DNA of 64,000 nucleotides. Origin: an uncultured Actinomycetes bacterium. Lineage in GTDB: Bacteria > Actinomycetota > UBA4738 > HRBIN12. The stretch lies in assembly GCA_963723855.1 (NCBI GenBank), contig CAVRSI010000011.1, forward strand, positions 122,181 to 186,180, in the 5' to 3' direction. Under the pieces are notes generated by a model. That model was not told the origin of the DNA and did not search any database. It was given only the letters and a program-made list of their open reading frames with translations. Shown piece after piece: positions 1 to 22,572 of this stretch. Each line of letters starts with the position of its first letter. Within the stretch, counting starts at the first letter, position 1. A program made the translations under genes and the position numbers.

Positions 1-4172
<4,172 letters not shown>

Positions 4173-4474
4173 AGAGAATCCGAGTCCCCGAGCCCGAGGG
4201 CTTGCCTCGAGCTTTGGGGGGTTCGTTTTCGGTTTGGAGTCGGCCCGACGGGAAAGCACTTCCCCCGGACCGATTTCAGCTGATCCCGCCCGTTGTCCGG
4301 ACGGTTTCAGTACTACCGTCTGCTGCACTCTGAGACACGGCGAACCGCGCCTCCCAGCTGACGGGAAAGCACTGGCTTTTGACACACTGTTCAGTTCTCA
4401 AGGTGCGAGGGGACGCGTGATCCCAGCTGATGACACCAGAAGAGGCACCTCAGGGTGGGGCGCGCCGGATAGGT

Positions 4475-4502
4475 ATCGTAGCAGCGTTCGCTGGGCCGTC
4501 AA
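4475..4502 (-). promoter_or_regulatory. Putative rRNA operon promoter (TTGACG-N16-TACGAT)
   Basis: Reverse complement of 4475-4502 reads TTGACGgcccagcgaacgctgcTACGAT, about 300 nt upstream of the 16S 5' end. The leader in between carries a duplicated AGTGCTTTCCCGTC motif (plus-strand copies at about 4240 and 4360). Confidence 0.5.
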
Positions 4503-4508
4503 CCGGGA

Positions 4509-5714
4509 CTAGGCCAGACGGCCGAACCAGCGCCGTCCGACCTGCAGGACCTTGCCGGCCAGCTCCTCGCGGCGCGCCTCGTACGAGGGATCGGTCACCG
4601 GTTCGTCGTCTAGCCTGACCCCGCCCTGCTCGATCCGCCGGCGGGCGTCGCCGTTGGAGGAGGCCAGGTCCAGGGCCACGAGCAGCCTCGGCAACCACAC
4701 CATCCCGTCTTCGGCGGCCCCGTCCGGGATCTGCACCTCGGGCACCACCTCAGGGAGCTCACGGTCGCGATGGACCCGGTTGAAGGCCTCCTCCGCGCGT
4801 GCCCCTGCGCCCGCCCCGTGATAGAGGTCCACCACCATCCGGGCCATCGCCCGCTTCTGGTCGTTGGCCTTCAGCGACCCATCTTCGAGACCCGACTCGA
4901 CGCCCGTGACCGCGTCCGTCGGCCGCCACGCCGCCAGCCACAGGTATTTGCCGATCAGCCCGTCGGGGATCCTCATCAGCTTGCCGAACATCTCGTCGGG
5001 TGCCTCCGTGATGCCCACGTAGTTCCCGAGCGATTGGCTCATCTTCTGGACCCCGTCGAGCCCCTCGAGGAGCGGCACGGTCATCGCGACCTGCGGGGCC
5101 TGATCCCACGAGCGTTGGAGCTCCCGCCCGACCAGCAGGTTGAAGAGCTGATCGGTTCCGCCCAGCTCGATGTCTGCCTCCACCGCCACCGAGTCATAGC
5201 CCTGCAGGAGCGGGTACATGAACTCCATGATCGAGATCGGACGGCCGTCCGCGTAGCGTGCCGCGAAGTCGTCGCGTTCGAGCATCCGAGCCACCGTGTA
5301 CGAAGACGTGAGCCGCAGCACGGCCTCCATGTCCATGCGCTCGAGCCACTCGGAGTTGTACCGGACCTCGAGTCGCTCGGTCGACAGGATCAGGCCGAAC
5401 TGCTCCAGGAGCCGCTCCGCGAATGCCTTGACGACGTCCTTGTCGAGTCGCGGGCGCGTCTCCGACTTCCCGGACGGATCGCCCACCCGGGCGGTGAAGT
5501 CGCCGACGATCAGCACCGCGACGTGCCCGGCGTCCTGGAACTGGCGGAGCTTGCGGAGCACGACGGCCCAACCGAGCGTCACATCCGATGCGGTGGGATC
5601 CAGCCCGAGCTTCACCCGCAACGGTCTTCCGAGCGCGAGCTTCTCCGCGAGTCCGCCTTCGGGAACGACCTCGGCGGTCCCGTCCTTCAGCAGGGCGAGA
5701 GCGTCGGGAGCCAT
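4509..5714 (-). CDS. tyrS: Tyrosyl-tRNA synthetase
   Basis: 401 aa ORF with class I motifs (KMSQS), tyrosine-binding region and a C-terminal S4-like domain. Confidence 0.95.
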   Translation of the reverse strand: MAPDALALLKDGTAEVVPEGGLAEKLALGRPLRVKLGLDPTASDVTLGWAVVLRKLRQFQDAGHVAVLIVGDFTARVGDPSGKSETRPRLDKDVVKAFAERLLEQFGLILSTERLEVRYNSEWLERMDMEAVLRLTSSYTVARMLERDDFAARYADGRPISIMEFMYPLLQGYDSVAVEADIELGGTDQLFNLLVGRELQRSWDQAPQVAMTVPLLEGLDGVQKMSQSLGNYVGITEAPDEMFGKLMRIPDGLIGKYLWLAAWRPTDAVTGVESGLEDGSLKANDQKRAMARMVVDLYHGAGAGARAEEAFNRVHRDRELPEVVPEVQIPDGAAEDGMVWLPRLLVALDLASSNGDARRRIEQGGVRLDDEPVTDPSYEARREELAGKVLQVGRRWFGRLA

Positions 5715-5765
5715 GGCGACCGGATGCTACCAGCGCGAACGGGAGCCACGGGTAGACTCGCTCAC

Positions 5766-8013
5766 GTGCGGAAGAGCTCGGGACTCCCCCTCGTTCTCTT
5801 CGTCGTCTTCGCGACCATCACGTCAGCGTGCGGCGGTCTCCCACGGCTGTCCGACTACCGCCAACGGTCGATCCCGCTCGCCCAGACCTCGTTCCTGTAT
5901 GCGTCCGACGGAAGCCTCATCACCGAGCTGCACGCCGGCGTGGACCGGGTGATCCTGTCTCGAACCCAGATGCCGCAGACGATCCGCGACGCGGTCGTCG
6001 CCATCGAGGACAAGCGCTTCTACTACCACCACGGGTTCGACCTGCGCGCGATCATCCGTGCGGCCTACGCGGACGTCTCCGCGGGCCAGATCGTCGAGGG
6101 TGGATCCACGATCACGCAGCAGCTCGTGAAGCAGCTGTACGTCGGTGACGACGAGACCCTGCGTCGGAAGATCGACGAGGCGGTGCTCGCCTGGCAGCTC
6201 GAGGACCGGCTCACCAAGGATCAGATCCTCACGAAATACCTCAACACGGTGTACTTCGGTCAGGGCGCGTACGGCATCCAGGCGGCCGCACGCTCGTACT
6301 TCGGGATCGACGCGAAGGACCTCACCCTCTCTCAGATCCGCCTTGCTGGCCGGGCTGATCCGCGCGCCGAACGACTTCGACCCGTTCGCCCACCCGGTGC
6401 ACGCACGCGTCAGGCGTAACAACGTGCTTCGGCAGATGCTCGACCAGGGGATGATCACGCCGTCCCAGAAGGACGAGGCCGTCGCCGAGCCGATCGAGCT
6501 CCACGCGTTCACGTCTCGTCAGCGGTACCCCTTCCCCTACTTCGTCGACTACTTCAAGCAATGGTTCCTCTCGAACCCGGCGTTCGGAAAGACGCGCGAG
6601 GACCGATACCAACTGCTGTTCACCGGCGGGCTCCGCATCACGACCACCATCGATCCCCAGTTCCAGCGGTACGCGCAGAGCGCGGTCCGCTCCGTGCTCC
6701 CGTATCCTGGCGACCCATCGGGCGCGATGACCGTGATCGACCCCCGGACGGGCTACGTCCGCGCGATGGTCGGCGGGGACGACGCCGACTACTGGAACGC
6801 CAACTCCGGCGACGGTCGCGTGAACCTCGCGACGGGAGGCAGCACCGGCCGGCAGGCGGGCTCGTCGTTCAAGCCGTTCGCCCTGGTGGCCGCGCTGGAG
6901 AACGGCATCTCGCCGAGCACGGTGTTCTCCGCGCCGTCCTCGATCGACATCCCGCTCGACAACGGCGAAGTGTGGCACGTGACCAACGCCGAGCCGAGCA
7001 ACTACGGCAGCCTCACTTTGGAGCAGGCGACGATCTCCTCGGTGAACACCGTGTACGCGCAGCTGATCGACGAGCTCGGCGCGCAGACCGTCATCGACGT
7101 CGCCAAGCGAATGGGGATCCGGTGCTGCCAGCGCGTCTCGGAGCCGAAGCGGCCGCTGCTCCCCTACCTGTCGGCCGTCCTCGGGACGAACGAGGTCAAC
7201 ACGCTCGAGATGAGCTCCGCGTACGGGACGCTCGCGACCGGCGGGCAACACGTCAACCCCATCCCGGTGATCAGCATCCTGGATGCGGACGGGCACCCGA
7301 TCTGGCAGGCGAACCCGAACCCCAAGCAGGTCGTCGACCCGGCCGTCGCGTCGGCCGCCAACCAGATCCTGCAGAAGGTCGTGCTGTACGGGACGGGGAC
7401 CGCCGCGAACATCGGGCGGCCGCAGATCGGCAAGACCGGTACGAACCAGAACTACGCGGACGCGTGGTTCGTCGGAGCCATCCCACAGCTGGTCGCCGCC
7501 GTCTGGGTGGGGTTCCCGCAGGGCCAGATCTCCATGTACGGAGGGTTCACGAGGATCACGGTGTTCGGAGGGACGTGGCCGGCGCAGATCTGGCGACTCT
7601 TCATGGAGAAGGCCGCGGCCACGTACCCGGTACGCAGCTTCCCGACACCGGACGTGAACTACGTGGCCGTGGCGGTCGACGTGACCCAGGACCCCTATTG
7701 CCTCCCGAACCAGTTCACGTTGCCGCAGAACATCCAGACCCTGGAGTTCATCGCGGGGACCGAGCCGACGCGCACGTGCACCGAGCCGTCCTCGCTGCAG
7801 TCGATACCCGTCCCGTCGGTCGTCGGACTCTCGCAGGCGGCCGCGATGACGATCCTCGGCGACGCCGGGTTCTACGTGAAGGTGGTCCTGGCCGTCTCGA
7901 CCCAACCGCCGGGCACGGTCATCTCCCAGAGCCCGTCGGCCGGCGTCTCCGCGTTCCAGACGAGCTCCGTCCTCATCACCGTGTCGAAGGATCTCTCGTC
8001 CCCGAGCGGCTAG
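5766..8013 (+). CDS. ponA: Class A penicillin-binding protein (transglycosylase/transpeptidase with C-terminal PASTA domain); apparent frameshift near 6345
   Basis: Glycosyltransferase motifs [10 protein letters not shown] and [11 protein letters not shown] sit in one frame (GTG at 5766; an alternative ATG is at 5724). The continuation [14 protein letters not shown]..., the transpeptidase domain and the PASTA domain are in a second frame (6145..8013). The two frames meet at about 6340-6350. Confidence 0.85.
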
Positions 8014-8632
8014 TGGCCCGCCCGCGGCGCTCGCGAGAGACGGAGGGATCTCCGTCCACCCAGAAGCGCCACGCATGTTCGAGACCCACGCGGATCCCGA
8101 CACGCGGGCCGGCGACGACGAGCGCGCTCGCCGCGGGGGTTCCCTCCGAGATCCAGATGTCGGCTCCGCGAACGAGGTCCGCGCCGTCCAACGATCGGTC
8201 GACGCCGAACGCCTGACAGAGCTTGGCGGGCCCGGAGCAGAGATCGCGATCCTTCGAGCGCCGCACGACGTTCTCGCATCTCGTCCAGCCCTTCGATCGG
8301 CTCGGCGGCACGAAGCAGCACCGCCATCCCCTCTCCCGCTCGGCCCGTGACGGCGTTCATGCAGAAATGCATGCCGTAGGTGAAGTACACGTACAGGTGG
8401 CCCGGTTCGCCGAACATCACGGCGTTCCGCGCCGTCCGCCCCCGGAAGGCGTGGCTCGCCGGGTCATCGGGCTCATACGCCTCGGTCTCCACGATGCGCG
8501 CCGCGAGCCGTGACCCGTCCCCCGAACGCGCCACGAGGATCCTGCCGAGCAGGTCGGGGGCGACCAGCGAGGACCGGCGCGCGTAGAAGCTCCGTGGGAG
8601 TCGCGGCCCGAGGGGTTGGCCGTTGCTCAGGC
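7976..8632 (-). CDS. mpg: DNA-3-methyladenine glycosylase (Mpg/AAG family); apparent frameshift near 8300; start codon uncertain
   Basis: The N-terminal part ([22 protein letters not shown]...[13 protein letters not shown]...) is in the 8010..8810 frame. The C-terminal part ([20 protein letters not shown]...WRFWVDGDP) is in the 7976..8311 frame. No canonical start lies near the expected N-terminus; CTG is the only candidate. Confidence 0.7.
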
Positions 8633-11295: not shown

Positions 11296-13696
11296 CTATA
11301 CGGGAGGCCGCGCTCGCGCTTCGTCGCCTCCGTCGCGGAGCTCGCCGCGCAGGTCCTGCGCGACCCGGGCACTGATGCGACCGACCGCCTCGTCGGCCTC
11401 GTCGCGCTCGAGCGTGCGGGAGGGGTCGCGGAACTCCACCGAGAACGCCAAGCTCTTCTTGCCGGCCGGCAACGGAGGTCCGGTGTGGACGTCGAACAGG
11501 ATGCAGGAGGCCACGAGGTCGCCGCCCGCCTCGCGGATGGCCGACACGACGGCGTCGTGCGGGACCGCTTCGTCGAGCACGAACGACAGGTCCCGGCGGA
11601 TGGGTGGGAACCTCGGGACGTCGCCGGCCTGCAGCGTCGTCGCGGCATGGCGCATGAGCGTCTCGATCTCGAGCTCCGCCGTGGCGATGCGCCCGGGGAC
11701 GTCGAGCGACTCCGCCACCCGCGGGTGGATCTCGCCGAGCACGCCGACGCGCGCGCCGTCGACCAGGACGAACGCCGAGCGACCCGGATGGAACAACGGG
11801 CCGGGAGGCTCACCCAGCGACCACACGATCCCGAGATCGGCCATCAACGCGTCGACCGCCCCCTTCGCATCGAAGAAGTCGTACTCGCGACGACCTGTCC
11901 AGGCGCTCTCGGCCGCTCCCGTGAACGCGAGGGCGGCCATGGGCCGCTCCTGGGGCTCCCCTTCGACCATCCGGAAGACCGTCCCGACCTCGAAGAGGGC
12001 GACGCTGCGCACCTGCCGGTAGGCGTTGCGGCGGATCGCGGCGAGCAGGCCCGGAGTGAGCCGCGTTCGGAGCCAGGGATCGTCGGCCTGCAGCGGGTTC
12101 GTGACGGCGATCGCATCGCCGTCGCCCGTCAGCGCCAGGTCCGCGTCGGATGCGAACGGGAACGACCGGACCTCCCGCAGCCCGGCCCGCATCAACGAGG
12201 TCCGGACACGGTGGCGGAACTCGTAGGCGTCCGGCATCCCTCCGGGCTGGCGGATCGCCGGGAGGGTCGATCCGACCCGGTCGTAGCCCTGGACGCGCAC
12301 GACCTCCTCGATCAGATCGACCTCGCGCTCGATGTCCACCCGATAGCCGGGCACCTCGACCGTCACGTCGTCGCCCGAGACCTCCGACCGCATCATCAGG
12401 CGTTCGAAGACCTGGGCCGCGTCCCCCGGCGAGACGTCGTAGCCGATCAGCGTCGTGGCCCGGCCGGCACGCATCGTCACGTGCCGCCGCTGCGGCACGG
12501 CTCCGGCCTCGACCGTGCCGCGAAGGACGCGGGCGCCGCACCACTCCGCCATCGAGACGGCACGCCCGATCCGCCCCGATCGACGCAGCCTCGGGATCGA
12601 CCCCGCGCTCGAACCGCATCGAAGCCTCGGTGGAGAGGTCGATCCGCCGTCGCGTCCTCTGGATCCCGCCGCGTTCGAAGGACGCCGCCTCGAGCAGGAC
12701 CTGATCGGTCGCGTCGGAGATCTCGGCGACGGAACCGCCCATCACGCCGGCGATGCCGACCGGACGCTCGAGGTCGCAGATCAGCAGGTCGTCGTCGGTG
12801 AGCGTCCGTTCGACGTCGTCGAGGGTGACCATCCGCTCGCCCTCGGCCGCCCGTCGCACGACGATCCCCGGGCCCTTGAGGAGCGCGAGATCGAACGGAT
12901 GCAGCGGTTGTCCGATCTCGAGCATCGCGTAGTTCGTGGCATCGACGGCGGCCGAGATCGGACGCATCCCCGCAGCGGTCAGGCGCGCCTGCACGCGGAC
13001 CGGCGATCTGGTGTGCCGAACGCCGCGAAGGATGCGAGCGACGTAGTGGGAGCACCGCTCCGGGTCGACGACGTCGACCGTGGCGACGCCTTCGGCGGGC
13101 TCCTCGTCCTCGACCACATCGATCGGCGGGAGCGTGAACGGGACCCCCGTCGCGGCCGCAACCTCCCGCGCCACGCCGATCACGGACAGGAAGTCGGCCC
13201 GGTTCGGCGTCACCTCGATATCGAGGACCGCGTCGTCCAGTCCCAGCGCCGCCTTCAGATCGTCGCCCGGCGTGAGGTCGTCGCCGAGGAGCAGGATGCC
13301 TTCATGGGTCGGCGCGATGCCCAACTCCATCGGCGAGCAGAGCATGCCTTCGGACACCACGCCCCGGATCTCGCGCGCGGTGAGCGGGGCCGGCAGCGCC
13401 GGTACCCGCGCGCCCGGTCCCGCGAGCGGTACGAGATCGCCCGCGACCATGTTGCGAACGCCGACGACAACCTCACGCTCCGACGAGCCGGTGCTCACGC
13501 GTGCCAGGCAGAGCTTGTCCGAGTTCGGATGGTCGCGGACCTCGAGGACCTTCGCGACGACGACGCCCTCGAGCCCGTCCCACGGGCGCTCGATCCGTTC
13601 GACCTCCGAGCCTTTCGACGTGAGGAGCTCGGCCAGATCCTCCGCCGAGAGGTCGACCGGGCAGCACTCGAGCAGCCAGGAGCGGACGATCTTCAT
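11296..13696 (-). CDS. pheT: Phenylalanyl-tRNA synthetase beta subunit; apparent frameshift near 12545
   Basis: The N-terminal 629 aa (MKIVRSWL... through B3/4 and B5 domains) is in the 11810..14314 frame. The C-terminal 418 aa, including the FDX-ACB domain, is in the 11296..12552 frame. Removing a single T near the ADRA/AVSMAEWCG junction would restore the frame. Confidence 0.9.
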
Positions 13697-14739
13697 GCGA
13701 CGCCTTGGAACTGCTCGAGGAAGCGCACGTCGCCCTCGACGAATAGCCGCATGTCCGGCACGCCGTACTGGATCATGGCGACCCGCTCGATCCCCAGGCC
13801 GAACGCGAACCCGGTGTACCGCTCGCTGTCGTACCCGCAATTCTCGAGCACCTTGGGATGGACCATGCCGGCGCCGAGCAGCTCGATCCAGCCGTTGCCG
13901 CACGTGCGGCACCCGACGCCGTCGCAGATGAAGCACGATACGGCGACCTGGGCCCCCGGCTCGACGAACGGGAAGTAGTCGGGGTTCAGGCGCACCTTGC
14001 GATCGCCCCCGAACATCGCTCGTGCGAACGTCTCCAGCGTCCCCTTCAGGTCGGCGAACGAGATGCCCTCGTCGACCGCCAGACATTCGACCTGATGGAA
14101 GACGGGCAGGTGCGTCGCGTCGGGGGTCTCCTGGCGATACACCCGACCGGGAGACACGATGTGGATCGGCGGATCCTGCGTCTCCATGGTGCGGATCTGC
14201 GCGGCGGACGTCTCGGTGCGCAGCAGGCGGCCGGGGATGTCGACGTAGAGCGAGTCCTTCATGGTCCGGGCGGGGTGGTCCGGCGGGATGTTCAGCGCCT
14301 CGAAGTTGTGCCAATCGTCCTCGATCTCCGGGCCCTCCACCACCTGGTAGCCCATCCGGGTGAAGACCTCGACGATCCGCCGCTCCACGATGGCGAGCGG
14401 GTTCAGGGATCCCGGACGCGGCCGGCGACCCGGGAGTGTCACGTCGACACCGTCGGCTTCGAGCAGGCGCGACTCGGCCGCCAGATCGAGCGCCGCTCTG
14501 CGCTCGTCGATCGCCGCCGTCAGCGCGTCGCGGACCTCGTTCGCGAGCATCCCCACGGCTTTGCGGTCCTCGTGGTCGAACGAGCCCAGGGCGCGTTGCG
14601 CCTCGGCGAAGCGGCCCTTCCGCCCGAGCACGGAGGACTTCGCGGCCTCCAGCTCCTCACGCGACGTCGCAGCGGCGATCGCCGCGAGGCCGCGGGCGCG
14701 CTCTTCCTCGAGGATCGTGCGGGCTTCGTTGGCGTCCAT
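13693..14739 (-). CDS. pheS: Phenylalanyl-tRNA synthetase alpha subunit
   Basis: About 348 aa starting MDANEARTIL, with class II aaRS motifs. It overlaps the pheT start by 4 nt (ATGA). Confidence 0.93.
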   Translation of the reverse strand: MDANEARTILEEERARGLAAIAAATSREELEAAKSSVLGRKGRFAEAQRALGSFDHEDRKAVGMLANEVRDALTAAIDERRAALDLAAESRLLEADGVDVTLPGRRPRPGSLNPLAIVERRIVEVFTRMGYQVVEGPEIEDDWHNFEALNIPPDHPARTMKDSLYVDIPGRLLRTETSAAQIRTMETQDPPIHIVSPGRVYRQETPDATHLPVFHQVECLAVDEGISFADLKGTLETFARAMFGGDRKVRLNPDYFPFVEPGAQVAVSCFICDGVGCRTCGNGWIELLGAGMVHPKVLENCGYDSERYTGFAFGLGIERVAMIQYGVPDMRLFVEGDVRFLEQFQGVA

Positions 14740-14768: not shown

Positions 14769-16223
14769 TCAGCCCGGCGTTGTGAGTGGGATGTCCAGAT
14801 GGAACGACAGCCGGCCGTCCGCGACTTCCGCCCACGCGCGGCCGCCCTGCGCGCTCGCCACGCCGCGCGCCACGAACAGGCCGATCTTGCTGCCCGCGCC
14901 CGTCCCGGGCCGGCGTGCGGCGAACAGCGCCTCGGCATCGACGCTGGTGAGCTCGGTCCCGTCCCGCCACACGGTGAGCTGCAAGCGATCGCCGACGCGG
15001 CCCCCTTCGATCGTGATCGGCCCTTCTCGTCCCCACCAGGCCTGCGCCTCGATGAACGACAGCAGCGCGCTCTTCACGCGCGCGGGATCGGCGACGACGA
15101 CGTCGCCCTTCCCGGCCCAGCGCACCTCGGGATGCTCGGGGTCGCGTTTCACCGACGCGACGATCCCCCGACCCAGCTCCGTCAGATCGATCCGTTCCGG
15201 GAACATCTCGAGCGTGCCCGCTGCGACCCGGCCGGCGTCGACCAGCAGGCGCAGGATCGCGTCCATCCGGTCGGCGTCGTAGACGATGCCTCGGAGCATC
15301 AGCGCCCGCTGCTCCTCCGTCATGATCTCCCACCGCTTCTCCAGCGCGTAGCCGAAGCCCTTCATCGCCGTCAGGGGCGAGCGGATGTCGTGAGCGGCGG
15401 CGGCCACGATCGTCTCGAGCGCGACGGTGCCGCTTCGACGCCTCCGAGCCCATTCGAACAGACACACGGTGGCGGCGGCCGCGAGGTTGAGCGACTCCGC
15501 CTTGCCCTGATGCGGGACCCGAACCGTGGCGTCGGCCAGCGCGAGGACGTCGTCGGGCAGCCCGTGCGCCTCGTTGCCGAACACGAAGACGACCGGCACG
15601 CTCAGGTCCACAGCGTATAGGTCCTGTTCGCCGTGCCCATCCATCGCGAGCACCCGCATCCCCTTGTCGCGTGCCCCCTGGAGGACGGCTGCCGTTCCCT
15701 CGTCGCGGACGATCGGCAGATGGAAGATCGACCCCGCCGAGGATCGCACGGTCTTGGGGTTGTAGACATCCACCGAGCTGGCCGTGAACACGACTCCCCC
15801 GGCCCCGGCGGCGTCCGCCGACCGCAGCACCGTTCCGGCGTTGCCGGGGTCACGCACTTCGTGCAGCACCGCCACGCACCCGTCGCTCGGCAACGCGTCG
15901 GACCCGACGTCGAGGAACGGGCACACACCCACGATCCCCTGCGGCGTCACCGTGGACGTCAGCTTGGCCATCACGTCCGAGCTGACCTCGTTGACGTCGA
16001 CGCCCGACTGACGTGCGCGGACCGCCAGTGGGTCCGCCCCATCGCTCACGAACAGCGCGAGGAGGGCCTCGGGATGCTCCAGGGCCTCACCGACCCCCTG
16101 GGCTCCTTCGACCAGGAAGCGGCGATCGTCTTCGCGGAACGCGCGCTTCTTCAGGCGAACGGCCGCGGCGATCTTCGGGTTCTTGATGGACGTCAGCACG
16201 GCACCGGATCCGCCACGAGACAC
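14769..16223 (-). CDS. TrmH/SpoU-family rRNA 2'-O-methyltransferase (RlmB/TsnR-like) fused to a C-terminal histidine-kinase catalytic core (HisKA + HATPase_c)
   Basis: The N-terminal ~260 aa carry an L30e-like domain plus SpoU motifs (RDPGNAGTVLRS, FGNEAHGL, ESLNLAAAATVCLFE). The C-terminal ~220 aa carry an H-box (AAHDIRSPLTAMKGF) and G-box (GSKIGLFVARGVASAQGG). It is one continuous 484 aa ORF. Confidence 0.8.
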   Translation of the reverse strand: MSRGGSGAVLTSIKNPKIAAAVRLKKRAFREDDRRFLVEGAQGVGEALEHPEALLALFVSDGADPLAVRARQSGVDVNEVSSDVMAKLTSTVTPQGIVGVCPFLDVGSDALPSDGCVAVLHEVRDPGNAGTVLRSADAAGAGGVVFTASSVDVYNPKTVRSSAGSIFHLPIVRDEGTAAVLQGARDKGMRVLAMDGHGEQDLYAVDLSVPVVFVFGNEAHGLPDDVLALADATVRVPHQGKAESLNLAAAATVCLFEWARRRRSGTVALETIVAAAAHDIRSPLTAMKGFGYALEKRWEIMTEEQRALMLRGIVYDADRMDAILRLLVDAGRVAAGTLEMFPERIDLTELGRGIVASVKRDPEHPEVRWAGKGDVVVADPARVKSALLSFIEAQAWWGREGPITIEGGRVGDRLQLTVWRDGTELTSVDAEALFAARRPGTGAGSKIGLFVARGVASAQGGRAWAEVADGRLSFHLDIPLTTPG

Positions 16224-17506: not shown

Positions 17507-17848
17507 TCACCAGTCGGGTTCGAGCGGTCTTCCGTACGCATCCTCGAGACGTTGGGTGTCGTCCTCGGTGGTGTATCCGTACGCGATCTCGAGCACCCTG
17601 CCTCGTGTGGTGCCGACGTTGCGGATGCGATGGGTCTCCTCGGCGGCGACCATGAACTCCTCGCCCGCCTGCGCCTCGACGACGCGGTTGCCGATCTCGA
17701 CCGTGAGACCGGGGTCGAGGACGACCCACATCTCGTCCCGCATGCGGTGGTAGTGAACGCTGGTCTCATGGGCGGGCTCCACCGTGATCATGCGAACGGA
17801 GGACGGCTGGTTGAGGGCGTAGGTCGCGACCTTGCCCCAGGGCTTGTC
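17507..17848 (-). CDS. Small cupin-domain protein
   Basis: About 113 aa from a GTG start with cupin motifs (PWGK..., HYH...E..., G.RV). It sits immediately downstream of ribH. Confidence 0.6.
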   Translation of the reverse strand, partial: DKPWGKVATYALNQPSSVRMITVEPAHETSVHYHRMRDEMWVVLDPGLTVEIGNRVVEAQAGEEFMVAAEETHRIRNVGTTRGRVLEIAYGYTTEDDTQRLEDAYGRPLEPDW

Positions 17849-17853
17849 GACGA

Positions 17854-18372
17854 TCACGGGGTCCCCCCTATCGTCACCGTCTGCTCGCTCCCCTCTCCGA
17901 TCCCGGCGTCGGGCAGCTGCTCCAGCACCGACACCATCGAGAGCACGGCGTCTGCCGCCTCCCAACCCTTGTTGCCGTGCGCGCCGCCGGCGCGATCCTC
18001 GGCCTGGGCCAGGTTCTCGACCGCGAGGACCTCGAAGATGACGGGGATGCCCGTGTCGCGGGCGACGTCGGCGATGCCTCTGGCCGCCTCGTTCGCTACC
18101 AGATCGAAATGCGCGGTCTCACCGCGGATCACCGCGCCCAGGCAGATGACGCCGTCGAACCGACCGGAGCGAGCGAACCGCTGCGCGACGAGCGGGATCT
18201 CGAACGCGCCCGGCACCCAGGCCACGTCGATGGCGTCGTCCGCCACCCCGAGGGCAGTCAGTCGGGCGACCGCCCCGTCGACGAGCTTGCGGGTGATGAC
18301 CTCGTTGAAGCGCGCCGCGACGATCGCGATCCGCCGGCCGGCACCCTGCGCGGGACCCTCGTAGACGTTCAC
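17854..18372 (-). CDS. ribH: 6,7-dimethyl-8-ribityllumazine synthase
   Basis: 172 aa with the typical RibH core ([10 protein letters not shown]..., GAFEIP). Confidence 0.9.
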
Positions 18373-21444: not shown

Positions 21445-21580
21445 AACCGCCACCCCGTCTCCTCCCATCCCGACTTTCACGGTCGGTCCCGGAATCTCAC
21501 CGGATCAACCCTCGCGTGGCTCGCGAGGGGTCGCGGACTTTCACCGCCGGTGGGGAATCGCACCCCGCCCCGGAAACGAG
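21445..21580 (-). ncRNA. FMN riboswitch (RFN element) controlling the ribD-ribE-ribBA-ribH operon
   Basis: The minus strand reads TTCCGGGGCGGGGTGCGATTCCCCACCGGCGGTGAAAGTCCGCGACC...GGTTGATCCGGTGAGATTCCGGGACCGACCGTGAAAGTCGGGATGGGAGGAG. This matches the conserved RFN core blocks. Confidence 0.88.
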
Positions 21581-21642
21581 TTATCTCGAGAACGAGTATA
21601 CGAGCGAGCCCGTCGGCCGGTCCAGGCGTGCGCCGCGGCCCG

Positions 21643-22572
21643 TCAGGGGGCGCGGCGGTCGATCGCGTACGACGAGCCGCCGTCACGCTTGGCGAACTGC
21701 TTCATCTCGGTGGCCACCGCGACCGCCTCGCCGTAGTGGAGGAACGCGCGCCGGGCCGTCGTGGCGATGCCGACCGAGATGGCCACGAGCGGCACGTCCT
21801 GCATGACCCCCTTACGGTCCTCCATGCGGATGAACCCGCGATCGAGATCCTCGGACTCGTAGAAGCCCGAACGCGAGCCGTCGAACCGTTCGCAGATGCG
21901 CTTCGCGACCGCCTCGGCGAAGTCGGGGTTCACCACGGCCACGAAGTCGTCTCCACCCACGTGTCCGACGAAGCCTTCGCCCGGATCGAACTCGACGACG
22001 GCGTCCTGGATGATGCGCGCCGTCGCCTGGATCAGCCGGTCGCCGCGCACGAAGCCCTTCTGGTCGTTGTACGTCTTGAAGTTGTCGAGGTCGCAGTACA
22101 GCACCGCGAACGGTCGCGCCTCGCGCACCTGCCGTTCGATCTCCTCCTGGATCCGGATGTTCCCCGGCAAGCCCGTGAGCGGCGAGAGGTTGCGCATCTC
22201 CTTCGCGCGACGGAGCGTGCCCTTCACGCGCGCCAGGAGCTCGATCGGGTCGAACGGTTTGATGATGTAGTCGTCGGCGCCGGACTGCAGCCCGGTCACC
22301 TTGTCCGCGGAGAGCGCCTTGGCGGTCAGCATGATGATGCTGGTGTTCGCGGTCTGCGGGTTCTTGCGCAGTCGCTGCGCGACCTCGAAACCGTCGATGC
22401 GCGGCATCATCACGTCGAGGAGCACCAGGTCCGGACGGAGCTCCCCGGCCTTCTCGAGCGCCTCTTCGCCGTCGGCCGCGACGGCGACGTCGTAGCCGGC
22501 CGATCGGAGGTTCACCTCGACGAACCGCGCGATATCGGGATCGTCGTCGACGACGAGGATGGTCTCGGCCAT
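21643..22572 (-). CDS. Response regulator with receiver domain and GGDEF-type diguanylate cyclase domain (signature reads GGDDF)
   Basis: N-terminal REC domain (VVDDDPDIARFV...LLDVMMPRIDGFE...) followed by GGDEF-domain blocks (LTGLPGN..., DLDNFKTYND..., HVGGDDFVAVV). Confidence 0.85.
   Translation of the reverse strand: MAETILVVDDDPDIARFVEVNLRSAGYDVAVAADGEEALEKAGELRPDLVLLDVMMPRIDGFEVAQRLRKNPQTANTSIIMLTAKALSADKVTGLQSGADDYIIKPFDPIELLARVKGTLRRAKEMRNLSPLTGLPGNIRIQEEIERQVREARPFAVLYCDLDNFKTYNDQKGFVRGDRLIQATARIIQDAVVEFDPGEGFVGHVGGDDFVAVVNPDFAEAVAKRICERFDGSRSGFYESEDLDRGFIRMEDRKGVMQDVPLVAISVGIATTARRAFLHYGEAVAVATEMKQFAKRDGGSSYAIDRRAP

Follow-up and report, generated by a model that had tools for sequence, protein, structure and literature searches.

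The DNA analysed here, a window of 64,000 nucleotides from contig CAVRSI010000011.1 of an uncultured Actinomycetes bacterium, contains on its minus strand a single uninterrupted open reading frame (ORF; 14769..16223, 484 codons plus stop) in which a TrmH/SpoU-type rRNA 2'-O-methyltransferase continues into a transmitter module of the histidine kinase type. Each half comes from a well-known family, and pseudokinases have been described before, but for this combination we found no description. The fusion of a methyltransferase with an ATP-blind transmitter is, in our assessment, very probably real and conserved: the transmitter has kept its phospho-acceptor histidine, and its ATP-binding motifs have been replaced across the clade. 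A full-text literature search for SpoU/TrmH combined with a histidine kinase or a HisKA architecture, and for Rv1644/TsnR, returned no description of such a protein. The public annotation of the fusion proteins reads 'TrmH family RNA methyltransferase' only, and the signalling half is invisible in it.

Distribution and architecture of the fusion

In a search of 5.8 billion proteins, the fusion was recovered in more than 120 protein clusters, with identities of 64-88%, a query coverage of 97-98%, a length of about 475 amino acids and the same four Pfam families. The source assemblies of these clusters derive from JGI, ENA, NCBI and Logan, and include short-read assemblies. A scan of GTDB for the C-terminal module, using one genome per species, located it in 141 species, all of them uncultured Actinomycetota metagenome-assembled genomes (MAGs), and the same fusion is thus found in related genomes, where the initial annotation had proposed to look for it. 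When the window was aligned with 80 genome loci, 76 of the 81 sequences gave one stop-free alignment of at least 460 residues spanning both halves, the exceptions being long-read MAGs full of frameshifts. The genes rplT and pheS flank the fusion wherever a fetched locus extends to them, which bears out the earlier assignment of the gene to the rplT-pheS slot.

These observations leave little room for an artefact in which the loss of a stop codon, or an indel from an error-prone assembly, merged two genes. Such an origin would be in keeping with the indel-type breaks that do exist in the window, for example in pheT, and with the presence of two separate genes in sister lineages. However, the same unbroken ORF recurs in the clusters from all these assembly sources and is uninterrupted in most of the aligned sequences, and the split lineages possess a PAS domain and a canonical kinase, which means that they do not represent a fusion protein cut in two. 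The short degenerate modules likewise argue against it, as they start inside SpoU motif 3 and lie on frameshift-ridden contigs. We regard the probability of an artefact as practically negligible, in line with the initial annotation, which had set this ORF apart from the frameshifts of the window. That annotation had also named separate genes at orthologous loci as grounds for rejecting the fusion; separate genes, encoding TrmH and a PAS-containing histidine kinase, do literally occur in sister lineages, but they reveal the origin of the fusion and not an artefact in the window. Several stand-alone degenerate DHp-CA genes (P0121, P0122, P0127 and others) were considered and discarded as fragments; every neighbouring gene on their contigs is broken too.

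Homologues of the fusion protein have the N-terminus MLTS or VLTS, and for this reason translation probably begins with the GTG at 16199, which corresponds to a coding sequence at 14769-16199 and a protein of 476 amino acids that begins with VLTSIKNPK. All features of the gene described below lie on the minus strand. An L30e/L7Ae-like RNA-binding N-terminal domain, the MRM3-like/SpoU substrate-binding domain (15927..16181, residues 15-99), matches the Pfam families MRM3-like_sub_bind (2.4e-15, 57 bits) and SpoU_sub_bind (2.5e-9, 38 bits), and is followed by the SPOUT (SpoU/TrmH) catalytic domain (15456..15875, residues 117-256; Pfam SpoU_methylase, E 1.2e-35, 123 bits). The fusion point is a linker of six residues (15420..15437, residues 263-268, SGTVAL region), which leads from the last SPOUT helix to the first helix of the DHp domain; in the AlphaFold2 model, the helices on either side comprise residues 247-263 and 269-300. 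No transmembrane, PAS or GAF domain was detected in the fusion protein, whose 262 N-terminal residues are all used by the methyltransferase. The initial annotation had described a single ORF that combines a TrmH/SpoU methyltransferase with a HisKA/HATPase_c-fold transmitter and has no sensor, and this description agrees with the Pfam matches, with the predicted fold and with the clusters. Matches to NCBIfam models were all below threshold, and involved the RlmB, TrmH and TsnR equivalogs as well as many kinases; the RlmB equivalog scored 114 bits against a cut-off of 160.

The four residues Asn128 and Arg134 (motif 1), Glu218 (motif 2) and Asn246 (motif 3) are invariant among the homologues. 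They correspond to Asn117, Arg123, Glu206 and Asn234 of YsgA, which were shown to be essential by mutagenesis (PMC9380741). A Foldseek search with the AlphaFold model of the fusion protein (pLDDT 81) returned as top matches the RlmR enzyme of Thermus thermophilus, which forms Um2552 (9muj and 9h1k; E 5e-21, 33% identity), followed by an uncharacterised Sinorhizobium enzyme (5kzk), by YsgA/RlmP, which forms Gm2553 (7qiu), and then by AviRb, NHR/TSR and RlmB. For the monomer model, the fold agreement with RlmR, YsgA and RlmB corresponds to a TM-score of about 0.8 on the target, and the superposition onto 9muj, 7qiu and 5kzk is full-length, with the N-terminal domain included. A phmmer search against the PDB gave the same order (RlmR 1e-33, YsgA 2.5e-31, AviRb 2.6e-30), and the alignment with RlmR reaches residue 254 of the 254-residue query segment. 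We conclude that the N-terminal half is a putatively active SPOUT 23S rRNA 2'-O-methyltransferase of the RlmR/RlmP/AviRb group, with near-equal similarity to enzymes that modify U2552, G2553 and U2479.

The window also contains an rRNA operon (1-4175, minus strand) with a complete 16S gene at 2647-4175. Its 23S gene (1-2400, minus strand) is cut by the window edge, so that positions 1-2219 of the 2925 in the Rfam model are present and the copy stops before helix 92 and the A-loop, the likely target region of the methyltransferase.

A kinase-like half with its histidine retained

The C-terminal half starts with a DHp (HisKA) helical hairpin (15219..15419, residues 269-335, H-box AAAHDIRSPLTAMKGFG), modelled as helices 269-300 and 303-335, and continues with a CA-like α/β domain of the Bergerat fold whose nucleotide-binding motifs are remodelled (14784..15212, residues 338-480). 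According to an AlphaFold2 model (pLDDT 91, pTM 0.86), this half is predicted to consist of a DHp hairpin and a Bergerat α/β CA fold. The profile search that had been suggested for this part gave a divided answer. The HisKA family (residues 269-333) scores 30.2 bits and passes its gathering score of 26.9, whereas HATPase_c (residues 398-481) reaches 22.0 bits, fails its gathering score of 26.4 and covers profile positions 24-110 only. No other Pfam family, including those of the HWE/HisKA_2 type, matched the kinase half at E ≤ 1.

The H-box is intact. The string AAHDIRSPLTAMKGF quoted in the initial annotation is present and contains His278, the phospho-acceptor position, whose codon at 15390..15392 appears as gtg on the plus strand and thus as CAC in the gene. 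Around this residue the window reads AAAHDIRSPLT, with the Asp at +1 and the Ser at +4 conserved, and the pattern H-D-x-x-S-P-L-T is preserved in full across the clade. For comparison among relatives, we defined a degenerate class of 133 members by an Arg at the position of the G1 Asp; the histidine is found in 133 of 133 of these, and also in all canonical relatives.

The motifs for ATP look entirely different. In the window, the remnant of the N-box (LLSFIEAQAWW; 15033..15068, residues 386-397) has lost both Asn residues to Ser and Ala, and ends in two tryptophans (W396, W397) that are invariant. The N-box Asn is retained by none of the 133 degenerate members, which have Ala, Ser, Gly, Thr or Val instead (Ala in the window), compared with 99 of 99 canonical relatives that have it. 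In the G1 box, the otherwise universal Asp that binds adenine is Arg in 133 of 133, as the class is defined, and Arg420 (codon 14964..14966) in the window. The second Phe of the F-box has become Arg in 96% of the degenerate members (Arg437), and the central Gly of the G2 box is Lys in 126 of 133 and Arg in three (Lys446). The remnant of the F- and G2-boxes together with the ATP-lid region, GTGAGSKIGLFVARGVASAQGG, lies at 14841..14906 (residues 440-461), and the lid segment has retained its normal length. The sequence quoted earlier as a G-box, GSKIGLFVARGVASAQGG, is indeed there, but it represents a degenerate G2 box with Lys in place of the central Gly. The derived invariant residues W396, W397, R420, R437 and K446 map without exception to the four boxes (N, G1, F and G2). 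Every ATP motif is kept in the canonical members, both fused (13/13) and unfused (86/86).

Nucleotide binding in the GHKL superfamily requires the N-box Asn, which coordinates Mg2+, and the G1 Asp, which contacts the adenine N6. As both are replaced in all members of the window's clade, we infer that its module is an ATP-blind pseudokinase and would be unable to autophosphorylate with ATP. The term histidine-kinase core used in the initial annotation therefore does not hold for this 133-member clade, in which all four boxes are replaced and ATP autophosphorylation is unlikely. One could still envisage a functional sensor-less kinase that autophosphorylates with ATP and signals the state of the methyltransferase or the ribosome to a response regulator. 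The HisKA match above the Pfam threshold, the invariant histidine and the confidently predicted histidine kinase fold would agree with this, as would the existence of the same fusion with a fully canonical kinase in P0174, P0351, P0277 and P0279, and for those canonical-fusion lineages this explanation is probably true, to judge from their motifs. For the window's clade we consider it quite improbable, given the complete loss of the Mg2+-coordinating Asn, the Arg at the adenine-binding position, the altered F- and G2-boxes and the HATPase_c score below threshold.

Selection acts on both parts of the transmitter. Values of dN/dS, which are rough because dS is near saturation in many of the 2516 pairs compared among 76 coding sequences, were 0.22 for DHp, 0.24 for SpoU, 0.33 for the N-terminal domain and 0.39 for the CA-like domain; within the fusion protein, constraint is strongest on the DHp. 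The CA-like domain is not decaying: its substitutions are coordinated, affect only what used to be the ATP pocket and, once made, were kept. A role as a basic RNA-binding surface was considered for this domain and rejected, its net charge being -6 and its isoelectric point 5.0, no more basic than in canonical relatives. It could instead have been re-targeted, so that the Trp-Trp pair, the two Arg and the Lys bind another, probably anionic or aromatic ligand, such as cyclic di-GMP (c-di-GMP), (p)ppGpp or S-adenosylmethionine/S-adenosylhomocysteine (SAM/SAH), in allosteric control of the methyltransferase or the DHp. The coordinated changes in only the four pocket motifs, frozen across the clade, the normal lid length, the purifying selection on the domain and a syntenic GGDEF protein all speak for such a ligand. 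The Arg and Trp residues could, however, merely fill and stabilise an empty pocket, and cyclase activity of the syntenic protein is uncertain, as described below. On balance we consider a re-targeted pocket unlikely.

The constraint on the DHp also bears on a purely structural explanation, in which the DHp-CA remnant would be an additional dimerisation clamp or scaffold for the SPOUT dimer or for binding to the pre-50S particle and would neither carry out phosphoryl chemistry nor have a receiver as its partner. Dimerisation is obligatory in SPOUT 2'-O-methyltransferases, RlmR engages RNA in a 2:1 complex, and the DHp is a dimerisation domain in its own right; moreover, the module has lost its ATP motifs, its gene has no response regulator beside it, and a stand-alone receiver (REC) protein is absent from the degenerate clade. 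What a scaffold does not explain is the complete preservation of the histidine and of the whole H-box, including the phosphatase-relevant Asp at +1 and Ser at +4, while the pseudokinase DivL has lost its His. The acidic CA-like domain furthermore offers no gained RNA-binding surface, and stand-alone RlmR and YsgA dimerise without such a module. We therefore hold a purely structural role to be rather doubtful.

Origin of the fusion and candidate partners

In three sister lineages, the same rplT-pheS slot is occupied by two genes, one for a TrmH protein of about 285 amino acids and one for a PAS-HisKA-HATPase_c kinase of about 355 amino acids (for example HYT27237.1), which overlap by 11 nucleotides. 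A GGAGG Shine-Dalgarno sequence is located 6-7 nucleotides ahead of the TTG or GTG start of the kinase gene, which overlaps the stop of the methyltransferase gene in a different frame; the junction has the features of typical translational coupling. The transmitter is shown by these relatives to descend from a cytoplasmic PAS-histidine-kinase gene.

Deeper fusions came to light when the C-terminal module was used in an exhaustive search and the results were scanned with Pfam. Some carry the degenerate signature at 33-55% identity (P0124, P0141, P0146, P0150, P0164, P0197, P0220, P0314). Others contain a canonical kinase, such as P0174 (505 amino acids, HATPase_c 90 bits), P0351 (103 bits) and P0277, together with MBI1844197.1 and MGC1512609.1 from an 'Acidimicrobiales bacterium'; P0279 is a fusion of 733 amino acids with a PAS domain between the halves. 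A homologue search with P0174 returned the split proteins as its nearest relatives. In a tree built by neighbour joining from 43 sequences of the methyltransferase domain, with 200 bootstraps, the degenerate members form a monophyletic group (85%), and the fusion of the P0174 type emerges from within the split-type methyltransferases (100% and 87%). Another canonical fused clade, P0249/P0277/P0280 with P0351/P0357 (100%), which has one member labelled Acidimicrobiales, branches apart, as do the PAS-containing fusions, and the linker and junction sequences differ among the fusion groups. Because of this tree placement and these differing linkers, we conclude that the association between methyltransferase and kinase is ancient, and that fusion probably happened several times independently. 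Recurrent gene fusion is a classic signature of functional interaction.

Neither of the immediate neighbours of the fusion, rplT and pheS, is a response regulator, and an adjacent cognate gene of this kind is absent. The window has a single receiver domain and a single kinase-like module; the receiver is that of a REC-GGDEF protein (21643..22572, minus strand, 309 amino acids), which the initial annotation had already put forward as a candidate partner. Its gene is syntenic in L088, L090, L091, L094 and L095, which represent degenerate, split and P0174-type lineages, and always sits between rpe and an FMN riboswitch/ribD. In the window, the riboswitch (21453-21581, minus strand, 108 bits) lies directly downstream of the REC-GGDEF gene and upstream of ribD-ribE-ribBA-ribH. 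The protein is exceptionally conserved, with over 120 clusters that are 87-99% identical and uniformly about 309 amino acids long, and its best 120 homologues are all at least 87% identical, i.e. from the same clade. Between the window and L088, identity is 94% for REC-GGDEF, 92% for L20, 83% each for pheS and argF, and 75% for the fusion protein. The motif is GGDDF in place of GGDEF or GGEEF, and the Pfam GGDEF match covers positions 5-106 of 161 only; these two features are what makes cyclase activity uncertain.

We favour, tentatively and at somewhat below an even chance, a receiver-directed role of the DHp, because a solvent-exposed His and an invariant H-D-x-x-S-P-L-T would not be needed by a pure scaffold. 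The DHp module would still act on a receiver domain, either as a phosphatase, as a phosphoryl shuttle in the manner of ChpT and Spo0B, or as a docking site, and the syntenic REC-GGDEF protein would be the best candidate for its target. The methyltransferase dimer would stand in the position of a sensor domain, and its SAM/SAH-bound, rRNA-bound or pre-50S-bound state would constitute the input. Information might equally well flow in reverse, with the state of the receiver tuning methylation. The complete mechanism, an ATP-blind transmitter that acts through its DHp on a receiver with the methyltransferase as input, is one that we would place not far short of an even chance. A more specific account, in which the methyltransferase dimer, depending on whether it is free, bound to SAM/SAH or attached to pre-50S particles, would serve as a sensor of ribosome maturation or SAM status and gate the action of the DHp on REC-GGDEF, or in which the remodelled pocket binds c-di-GMP or another nucleotide to control A-loop methylation, has a low probability in our view. 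Were it correct, it would amount to a direct, previously unknown coupling of 23S rRNA modification to two-component or c-di-GMP signalling, and the repeated independent fusion would be a Rosetta-stone signature of that coupling.

Several points weigh against an ATP-blind transmitter with a receiver as its target. SPOUT enzymes dimerise with perpendicular helices, a geometry that may not suit the parallel four-helix bundle of a DHp. The loss of ATP binding is a prediction from motifs, and a lid of normal length, unlike that of ChpT, together with substitutions that are fixed and not random, could indicate a new ligand specificity. A distance of 5.4 kb separates the REC-GGDEF gene from the fusion, and it belongs to a long conserved run of housekeeping genes (def-fmt-rsmB-rpe ... 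rib ... infC-rpmI-rplT), which might by itself account for the synteny; the canonical fused clade B (L093) has neither REC-GGDEF nor any other REC in the vicinity. In addition, a stand-alone REC of 132-154 amino acids overlaps the argF start after argJ in split and P0174-type lineages (L090 16081-16545; L091 16695-17126; L095 16985-17383). Neither this REC nor argJ is present between pheT and argF in the window or in the roughly 67 loci of the degenerate clade that extend to argF, and the true partner could have been lost along with kinase activity. This co-loss of REC and kinase is weak evidence, as it concerns essentially one clade in the methyltransferase tree.

Other regulatory genes occur around related loci. 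In L085 (11652-12202), the genome of the 733-residue PAS-containing fusion, a GGDEF-domain protein of 498 amino acids is encoded right after pheT; its first 183 residues are without a Pfam match, and with it the locus has, independently of REC-GGDEF, another GGDEF protein as neighbour. The divergent degenerate-clade genome L094 has a large AAA_16/GerE (LuxR-type) regulator and a guanylate-cyclase-like gene (4329-8333) between the cupin gene and infC, and an ECF sigma factor with a neighbour of 701 amino acids inserted between pheT and argF.

On the minus strand of the window, rplT (L20; 16249..16614) lies directly upstream of the fusion, ends 49 nucleotides from the GTG start and is kept next door in all related loci. 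On the other side, pheS (13693..14739), a conserved neighbour, begins 29 nucleotides past the fusion stop. The adjoining pheT is broken across two frames near 12.5 kb (region 11296-14314, minus strand), its N-terminal part being found in ORF 11810-14314 and its C-terminal part as ORF 11296-12552. The relative L088 has one pheT of 789 amino acids, and the break in the window is probably an assembly indel; many such breaks are present in the long-read MAG contigs L089 and L092 of relatives. A small ORF resembling a cupin or the C-terminal part of mannose-6-phosphate isomerase (17507-17965, minus strand) is located between ribH and infC. It has the same position in L088 and L094, and the split-type lineages instead have hisG, a cold-shock protein gene and DUF1844.

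Significance and comparison with known systems

Ribosomal RNA 2'-O-methyltransferases are usually seen as housekeeping enzymes that work constitutively, and histidine kinases as proteins that sense cues from outside the cell or from metabolism. In the infC-rpmI-rplT-pheST translation operon of a broad group of Actinomycetota, all of them uncultured, a methyltransferase and a histidine-kinase module are locked together, at first as genes coupled in translation and later, it appears on several independent occasions, as one polypeptide. If the two halves do communicate, the modification or assembly status of the ribosome would feed into, or be governed by, phosphorelay or second-messenger signalling, and methylation of the A-loop type could be tied to two-component or c-di-GMP signalling. 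The natural series from split genes through canonical fusion to a pseudokinase with a phosphorylatable His supplies matched pairs of canonical and degenerate proteins for biochemistry.

Among the known methyltransferases, the A-loop enzymes RlmR (T. thermophilus TTC1712/TTHA0275, Um2552) and RlmP/YsgA (B. subtilis, Gm2553) likewise combine an L30e-like domain with SpoU, are 31-34% identical to the N-terminal half of the fusion, and have the four catalytic residues in common with it; AviRb (Um2479) is also close. The ysgA gene presumably lies next to pheS in B. subtilis. Stand-alone RlmR, YsgA and AviRb end where the DHp begins in the fusion, and none of them has a C-terminal transmitter.

The split pair and the canonical fusions, themselves undescribed, occupy the same position between rplT and pheS with a homologous methyltransferase and DHp-CA. 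All four boxes (N, G1, F and G2) are still canonical in them, and a PAS domain is often present as well; the window's clade is devoid of these. Class I HisKA kinases, such as T. maritima HK853 and E. coli EnvZ and ZraS, have the same typical H-box, H-[DE]-x-[RK]-[ST]-P-L-T; compared to these, the fusion has no sensor, transmembrane, HAMP or PAS region, its N, G1, F and G2 boxes are replaced, and it is without an adjacent cognate response regulator.

To judge from its sequence, the fusion has retained its His and lost its ATP motifs, and it may in this resemble the dimeric histidine kinase-like phosphotransferases ChpT of Caulobacter and Spo0B of Bacillus. ChpT is a histidine kinase-like phosphotransferase that is unable to bind ATP (PMC3433190). 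Its ATP lid is replaced by a helix, whereas the fusion has kept the lid length and acquired new invariant Arg, Lys and Trp residues. In contrast to ChpT and Spo0B, the fusion can be recognised without doubt as HisKA from its sequence, has a true kinase as its recent ancestor and is joined to an enzyme; no phosphorelay partners were identified beside it, and no hybrid kinase that would act upstream of it. DivL presents the reverse case, having lost its His (Tyr) and kept its CA domain, while the fusion has kept the His and lost the ATP site; neither DivL nor RetS is fused to an RNA-modifying enzyme.

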